Assembly: GCA_051313645.2 (NCBI GenBank)
Contig: JBNRSN020000524.1
Coordinates: 124,001 to 188,000, forward strand
DNA: 64,000 nt
From: Centroscyllium fabricii
Lineage: Eukaryota
Direction: 5' to 3'
A model generated the notes under the pieces. That model was not told where the DNA came from and searched no databases. It saw nothing but the letters and a program-made list of their open reading frames with translations. Positions 21,629-22,286 of the stretch are shown here, one piece after another (positions within the stretch are counted from its first letter, which is position 1; the number at the start of each line of letters is the position of its first letter). The position numbers and the translations under genes are program-made.

Positions 21629-22286
21629 CAGGTTGAAGACCGTTAATCCGGCACGGGTGGGACCAGGCCCATGCCGGTACAGTGAAATAACTGGAAGAAT
21701 GAAGCCGGTGCACATGCGTGCACCATTCAAAAATGGCCATGCGCATAACATTGGAAATGGCCGCCGTGAAATTTTGAATGATCTGCGCATGCGCTGCCGA
21801 ACGGCGAGCGCATGCGCAGATCATGCGAAATCGCCGCCGCGAAGTTGGCGGTGGGCAGCAGGTAGAGGGTGCCGACCAGCCGGTTCTCCTCCACCGTCAG
21901 GGTCAGCACCGGCGACGGGAAGCTGGGCGTGTTGTCGTTGATGTCTTCGATCATGACTTTGCCATTGTACAGGTCGACCCAGCTCTGAGCCAGCCCGATC
22001 ACCGACACCTCGAAGTCGACGAAGCACTCGTTCTCGTCGAAGATCATCTGGCACTGCAGCAGCTTCTCACGGTCCATTCTTCGCATGCGCAGATCATTCA
22101 AAAATTCCAGCGGCCATTTTGAATGATCTGCGCATGTGCTCGCTGTTCGGCGGTGCATGCGCAGATCATTCGCCAAAGCATCAATCGCGGTGGCCATTTT
22201 GCGCATGCGCAGGGCTGTCGGGGCTATGATGCCGGACGACTGAAGTTGCCGTTTTTTCGGTTACCATATTAACGTTCTTCAACCTG
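21629..22286. mobile_element. Non-autonomous Tigger/pogo-like TIR element carrying a protocadherin-7 fragment (Pack-type MITE, copy 2)
   Basis: TA flanks at 21627-28 and 22287-88. TIR CAGGTTGAAGACCGTTAAT vs reverse-complemented end CAGGTTGAAGAACGTTAAT. Arms are clearly homologous to 1621-2278. Confidence 0.93.
21847..22083 (-). pseudogene. PCDH7: Captured protocadherin-7 coding fragment (EC1-EC2 junction)
   Basis: Minus frame RRMDREKLLQCQMIFDENECFVDFEVSVIGLAQSWVDLYNGKVMIEDINDNTPSFPSPVLTLTVEENRLVGTLYLLPTA. It has cadherin DRE and DINDNxP motifs and is near-identical to the PCDH7 sequence as I recall it (IDREKLPQCQMIFDENECFLDFEVSVIGPSQSWVDL...). No signal peptide or downstream domains. Confidence 0.9.

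Follow-up and report, generated by a model that had tools for sequence, protein, structure and literature searches.

The mechanism by which TIR transposons take up host DNA is an open question, and animal examples have been regarded as rare and, for the most part, single-copy. The locus described here raises this question in a particular form: how did a piece of a protocadherin gene come to lie inside a small mobile element of a shark, and do the hairpin arms beside it, in which the original prediction saw NRF1-like and YY1-like motifs, define the site of capture or act as a promoter over the cargo? The family to which the element belongs offers dozens of independent captures, traceable donors and a 72-bp module that serves as a ruler, so that counts of junctions can separate stalling, cleavage and selection.

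The element and its insertion site

In the window, the whole 64-kb stretch of DNA that was analysed, positions 21629-22286 hold a 658-bp non-autonomous TIR element with a TA on both sides. It is a Pack-MITE, that is, a non-autonomous TIR element with a cargo of host DNA, and it lies within an intron, on the 5′ side of an exon that codes for a bMERB domain. The features of the element and of a sibling in the same window are:

21629-22286, no strand: whole Pack-MITE, 658 bp, intronic
21627-21628 (left) and 22287-22288 (right), no strand: TA target-site duplication
21629-21680, plus strand: left TIR and subterminal region; 19 bp paired with 22268-22286; like the 3′ end of a Jerky-like Tigger
21710-21770, plus strand: two degenerate half-modules, each with a core 10-mer and a YY1-like spacer
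21771-21831, no strand: full hairpin module of the left arm, stem-loop-stem
21832-21846, plus strand: spacer and the first 2 bases of the next stem; the left junction comes after, with 1 base common with the donor
21847-22074, minus strand (antisense): cargo, protocadherin-7 exon 1, 76 codons, cadherin repeats 1-2; donor L053
22079-22215, minus strand: right arm of mirror-oriented modules; hairpins 22083-22136 and 22117-22172
22216-22286, minus strand: right subterminal region and TIR; like the 5′ end of the same Jerky-like Tigger element
1621-2278, no strand: sibling element, TA-flanked, with the same arms, another GC-rich cargo (about 1811-2048) and a hairpin at 2059-2117

A deletion private to this copy removed the first spacer and stem of the right arm. 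Of 29 other copies that were fetched, most have the cargo of the sibling as well. In organism D, a contig tracks the left flank up to 21629 and leaves it there, the arms being without cover at 80% likeness, and an empty TA site at this position is therefore probable. The exon at 23248-23347 encodes part of the bMERB domain and marks the host gene of the insertion, which we take to be EHBP1-like. Just left of the insertion, the intronic stretch 21287-21563 is almost identical in organisms A and D, with a difference of about 6% in the adjoining flank; it is possibly a conserved non-coding element or an unannotated exon. The window further contains a long pyrimidine-rich simple repeat and a 22-bp minisatellite (2597-3796 and 60248-60827), and a SINE at about 295-690.

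Family size and candidate mobiliser

A degenerate 31-base pattern of the left end matched the 7.2-Gb genome exactly at 13,658 places, and its reversed control at none. Among the first 90 left-end matches on contig C1, 81 had a right TIR within 1.56 kb, with TA next to it in 75 of the 81; none of these elements was without a non-arm middle, and about 30 of the 81 middles were GC-rich minisatellites, not unique-looking DNA. A pattern for the subfamily of 21629-22286 gave 1,370 matches; in the 89 that were read, 75 had both TIRs (68 of the 75 with TA) and 35 were cargo-free. The target-site duplication (TSD) was TA only across the sampled copies, and this, together with TIRs of at most 40 bp and the absence of a transposase ORF, places the family among pogo/Tigger MITEs. 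Long modular inverted arms are also a trait of foldback (MULE-type) elements, the 9-10 bp TSD of which is absent. A tandem satellite was excluded, as the copies are dispersed and TA-flanked, and so was a segmental duplication, as flanks differ between copies.

Large subfamilies (L099, L102, L105, L109, L160, L304) have a middle made of an expanding GC-rich minisatellite, which begins at the hairpin loop or within an older cargo. In L044, L057, L098, L108, L295 and L340, a cargo or right-end segment is inverted between the mirror arms, as expected of recombination between inverted modules.

Of 150 DDE_1 loci that were scored, the 30 with the highest rank were read; all belong to a single 2.38-kb TA-flanked family with a Jerky-like ORF. 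The left 52 bases of the MITE resemble the 3′ end of this Tigger with z 6.0 and the right 64 its 5′ end with z 5.3, compared with z 3.1 crosswise (copy L010). Because the MITE and the 2.38-kb Tigger are unlike at TIR bases 5-14, the latter is a candidate for the true mobiliser or its sister; judging from the ends, it, or a sister, may have moved the MITE in trans, or a different element may have done so. According to the available text of PMC7386202, Tigger is the source of JRK. At two unrelated loci, L266 and L273, one-ended pieces of the MITE family are fused with sequence of a Tigger transposase, and the two fusion points in the ORF almost coincide.

Motifs and hairpins of the arms

The NRF1-consensus 10-mer occurs 14 times in the 64-kb window at up to one mismatch, versus 0.31 expected, a number equalled in 0 of 100 shuffles; 12 of these belong to the two elements, and the other 2 to a third one at 57.8 kb. 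The claim of 7-8 motif copies per element is true at up to two mismatches (8 and 7 cores, of which 3 and 5 are perfect). All three hairpins that had been proposed exist, at 21771-21831 (-28.9 kcal/mol, z -7.7), 22083-22136 (z -7.7) and 2059-2117 (z -8.9), and a fourth was found at 22117-22172 (z -9.0; 200 shuffles each), the fold of the whole element having z -9.3 (20 shuffles). A chance palindrome is ruled out by the excess of motifs over shuffles and by these folding scores. The naming of the motifs also agrees with published consensus sequences, in that the arm core is the NRF1 consensus in the text available from PMC10810270, and the spacer motif matches 11 of 12 bases of a long YY1 site in the accessible part of PMC4901126.

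The arm unit is 72 bp long and is composed of a stem, a 13-base loop, a stem and a 13-14-base spacer, with opposite (mirror) orientation in the two arms. The NRF1-like core ends and begins stems, and the YY1-like motif covers a stem end and the spacer, which holds the YY1 core; in cargo-free copies, the spacing from core to core alternates between 23 and 48-50 bases. Loop and spacer are each able to form the tip of a hairpin. The best reading of the NRF1/YY1-like motifs is that they belong to the stem and spacer of the element itself. That hairpins frame the cargo, as was originally proposed, is correct insofar as the hairpins are real, but they are not built around it: cores are just as numerous where cargo is absent (mean 5.3 in 35 cargo-free copies, 4.6 in 40 with cargo), and the cargo-free copies have the stronger folds (z -17.5 to -19.5, four copies). 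In the 23-copy majority, a spacer separates the cargo from the hairpin corresponding to 22083, which touches the cargo in 21629-22286 because of the deletion private to that copy.

The third element, at 57633-57965, is a TA-flanked Tigger-type MITE of a different family with related ends (z 4.2), which has NRF1-like cores and no long hairpins. The MITE at L280:1040-1330, which is unrelated, has a longer target duplication and is taken here to be hAT-like, contains a short stretch resembling the stem of the MITE family; this likeness suggests that modules or motifs may be common to different superfamilies.

Cargo and donors

The cargo (228 bp) is a piece of a single exon of protocadherin-7 (PCDH7). 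By the relatives of its PCDH7, the host is a shark. A DNA search with it gave 40 rows, and the 30 loci fetched were this copy, 28 other element copies and L053, so that there are at least 28 PCDH7-bearing copies besides 21629-22286. TA stands left of the TIR in 28 of 28, and right of it in 22 of the 23 having a right TIR. The donor L053 (G000:C711:237.767 Mb) is the sole PCDH7 found in the assembly, an intact gene with a 1,029-residue frame and without arms, 92% identical to the cargo of 21629-22286. Copies of the cargo differ by 4.4% from their own majority, and private changes fall on all codon positions (87, 71 and 117), which therefore indicates decay.

The family carries about 15 cargo types. 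First-look matches, which are not copy numbers, amount to 2,261 for the L015 type, 1,028 for a CYB561D2 promoter with exon 1, 109 for L290, 94 for L023, 74 for the exon and intron of L140, 67 for L295, 56 for L372, 11 for L027 and 8 for L334. Seven donor loci without arms were found (L053, L248, L392, L406, L420, L443 and L471), at 0.9-7% from the copy majority. For the five other than those of PCDH7 and CYB561D2, the distance of 0.9-5.3% is 1-1.8 times the divergence of the copies, which fits capture in this lineage. L392, which lies upstream of a CYB561D2 exon, was found by the family search; the DNA search for the CYB561D2 donor gave element copies only among 20 loci. Only element copies were likewise obtained for the cargos of L015 (30 loci fetched), L372 and L295 (25 loci each). 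The donor exon of L248, to which Pfam and Atlas gave no name, presumably resembles AHI1.

The PCDH7 piece alone is uninformative on retroduplication. Exon-intron borders are retained in two other cargos, and capture was therefore from DNA; a processed pseudogene is excluded by the antisense exon piece inside TIRs and the introns kept in sibling cargos. Newer cargos often replace part of an older one and leave common stubs, and several later captures join within the older cargo and not in the arm; hairpins are therefore not required at both ends. In L218 and L223, the captured CYB561D2 promoter segment is repeated in tandem two to three times. Thousands of copies of promoter and exon pieces (CYB561D2, PCDH7 and others), scattered in a large shark genome, matter for annotation, and antisense or small-RNA regulation of the donors is possibly affected.

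Position of the junctions in the module

Arm/cargo borders were read in 29 representative elements masked with 43 cargo-free copies. Ancestral junctions seen twice, subterminal borders and mask artefacts were left out, and 33 independent junctions, picked by hand, were kept. Read from the outside in, 14 lie in the spacer, where they concentrate at the far end, 10 in the next stem, all within its first 7 bases, 8 in the loop and 1 in the preceding stem. The skew of direction, 10 junctions into the next stem versus 1 into the preceding one, has P 0.012. The stem core, a window set after looking at the data, contains 0 of the 33 versus about 14 expected (32 of 73 positions, P 5e-9). When whole stems are taken instead, 11 of the 33 junctions fall in 46 of the 73 positions (P 5e-4), and in the worst reading, where three junctions with 3-4 bases of filler (a possible stem remnant) are counted as core, P is 1.6e-5.

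As a control, 13 single-copy interruptions within modules were chosen by hand from 28 other borders, the remaining 15 (other elements, ends, cargo deletions, half-modules) being dropped. Seven of the 13 lie in the core (Fisher P 3e-5 against the junctions, 0.002 in the worst reading), and core junctions are therefore detectable. This difference supports the suggestion that the hairpins define the capture site. At the donor junctions, 1-4 bases were common in 11 of 14, as read by eye, and the PCDH7, L022 and L023 cargos replace precisely the central hairpin between two mirror spacers.

Origin of the captures

In sum, it is likely that the hairpins fix the point of capture in the course of gap repair. 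Our preferred reading, to which we give a probability of about 0.62, is that of a non-autonomous transposon of Tigger/pogo type, in whose palindromic arms repair synthesis likely halts at a stem foot, with the result that host DNA is copied in and then multiplied. Excision or a fork break would open a gap from which both ends copy inward, and synthesis would stop where the template folds. It would then switch to another locus, often the CpG-rich 5′ end of a gene, by way of 1-4 common bases, followed by rejoining. The loaded element would be moved in trans by the Jerky-like Tigger transposase or its sister, and its copies would multiply.

A nuclease could also cut the tips of hairpins or cruciforms in the same element, at loop or spacer and independently of excision, with a templated insertion filling the break. 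The strong palindromes of the cargo-free copies, the 22 of 33 junctions that lie in loop or spacer and the exact substitution of the central hairpin by three cargos would all be expected of such cuts. Resection from a tip, however, should retreat into the preceding stem, where a single junction was seen, and spacer junctions gather at the far end. For junctions that run past the spacer into the AT-rich stem foot, arrest of synthesis at a hairpin in the template is a better fit than cleavage of the tip followed by resection. Stalling and cleavage are weakly told apart, because both loop and spacer serve as tip in one hairpin and as foot in the other; we consider cleavage unlikely.

Survivor selection could mimic the avoidance of cores, as only amplified, transposition-competent chimeras are visible. 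Breaks would then be random, and only chimeras that keep whole stems would be copied on or be stable, for instance where a protein binds the intact core. All 33 junctions do come from surviving elements, most of them amplified, and the in-core controls are single, unamplified copies. However, the number of cores differs widely among mobile copies and subfamilies, and cargos with few first-look matches (8 and 11) obey the same junction rule, which makes this explanation quite unlikely.

The motifs might instead matter by themselves, the arms being a portable NRF1/YY1 promoter, bidirectional over the cargo, or a tether to CpG-island promoters that biases the choice of donors. The exact NRF1 consensus and the near-complete YY1 site agree with this, as do the CYB561D2 cargo, made of promoter and exon 1, and the CpG o/e of donor cargos (0.50-0.95 versus 0.44 in 25 insertion flanks). 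One donor is, however, an AT-rich internal exon, and the same motifs are found in cargo-free copies and in unrelated elements. NRF1 is methylation-sensitive, and CpG decay was compared in four subfamilies with 18-29 best-matching copies each. CpG transitions exceed those at non-CpG C/G 3.0-9.3-fold in ends, arms, cores and cargo, and 3.0-8.2 times in the NRF1-like cores of three subfamilies; for one core class the ratio is undefined (CpG 11/361, non-CpG 0/309). Core CpG rates are about those of the cargo and somewhat below those of the rest of the arm, and no clear protection of cores from germline CpG decay was found in the four subfamilies. The pattern is that of methylated DNA and points to germline methylation. 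Of two sequencing runs presumed to be RNA, which consist of contigs, one contains arm sequence, but without cover of the flanks, and speaks neither for nor against expression. Moreover, capture of GC-rich DNA appears general in Pack-MULEs and multicopy Pack-TIRs in the available text of PMC8277862. Given the decay of the cores and the motifs in cargo-free copies, the bidirectional promoter is not supported; with the tether included, we hold this explanation to be decidedly improbable, a somatic or single-copy promoter role of the arms being conceivable.

Finally, in a model that is shown in Arabidopsis for Pack-CACTA (PMC6379663, accessible part) and recalls the one-ended fusions in two Tigger copies, adjacent insertions trap the DNA between them after loss of the ends that face each other. 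For the shark cargo this is very improbable, since 0 of 7 donors have arms beside the cargo, the model needs two insertions in coding exons at a distance of 200-700 bp, and it does not predict the module phase.

Age of the PCDH7 and CYB561D2 cargos

For both PCDH7 and CYB561D2, the cargo diverges from its donor beyond what the age of the copies predicts. Between L053 and the majority of the PCDH7 cargo, 12 of 229 bases differ, with 7 synonymous and 4 replacement codons, and in 3 of these 4 the cargo has the residue that most other sharks keep; it is one residue away from Scyliorhinus and Cetorhinus. The host PCDH7 has, at two sites, residues absent from all 120 homologues, and the searches gave no close relative that has its private residues. 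Between the CYB561D2 cargo and its donor the distance is about 7% plus four indels, and the copies of this cargo are 2.5% from their majority. The excess could mean that the host genes changed fast, that a paralogue was lost or that the cargo was imported from a different lineage. A wider scenario would be a vertebrate gene-fragment trap. In it, tandem hairpins would program the place of capture, the element would be drawn to CpG-island promoters by its NRF1/YY1 sites and so take up promoters and first exons, and these would be spread in thousands of copies; the cargos of PCDH7 and CYB561D2, seemingly older than the stay of the family in this lineage, would have come pre-loaded from another shark lineage. 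As a whole, we find this unlikely.

Comparison with known systems

We assume that the MITE family resembles Tigger/pogo MITEs such as MER46/Tigger4. It has in common with such MITEs a TA TSD, a short TIR, the lack of an ORF and a candidate Jerky-like partner transposase, and differs in its long modular internal palindrome and in cargo trapping. The hairpins at the ends of Tam3 of Antirrhinum (Yamashita 1999) reportedly arrest gap-repair synthesis and prevent internal derivatives, whereas those of the shark family appear to set capture points. In the literature covered, neither the family nor a MITE with NRF1/YY1 modules was found described; Repbase, Dfam and subscription papers, outside this scope, may list the family.

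In a Pack-TIR, both TIRs of one element surround a non-TE insert of 100-5000 bp (here 658 and 228 bp), a unique parental copy at least 90% identical has no TE beside it (L053 at 92%, and six more donors) and the insert is not a retroduplicate (two other cargos with exon-intron borders); a multicopy Pack-TIR has moved recurrently to distinct TSD-flanked sites (28 other PCDH7 copies). In its available text, the survey of Tan et al. 2021 (PMC8277862) counts 370 Pack-TIRs in 100 genomes, four of them multicopy, with a frog example of three copies and none in the elephant shark, its one cartilaginous fish, and proposes a model of fork stalling and template switching. The shark family is like the multicopy animal Pack-TIRs of that text in its TIRs around a host fragment, amplification with own TSDs, GC-rich cargo and short microhomology. 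It is unlike them in its about 15 cargo types with 8 to about 2,000 first-look matches each, and in serial replacement of cargo and hairpin-phased junctions, which the same text does not report.

With the plant Pack-MULE, Pack-Mariner and Pack-CACTA elements, as far as they are described in the available parts of PMC8903248 and PMC6379663, the family shares empty and loaded subgroups, several loci per element and stepwise acquisition; it differs from plant Pack-TYPE elements in its vertebrate host, pogo/Tigger ends and arms of tandem palindromic modules. The Drosophila FB4 in Ssk-FB4 (PMC8277862, available text) has similar repetitive, rearranging inverted arms, with proposed fork stalling and gene capture, but it has 9-10 bp TSDs, TIRs of about 700 bp (MULE-like) and one capture, in contrast to the TA TSDs and many captures found here. 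The shark elements are a multicopy Pack-TIR family far larger than those of the published animal survey; the Pack-TIR kind itself is known, and what is new is the scale, the serial capture and the module-phase rule.
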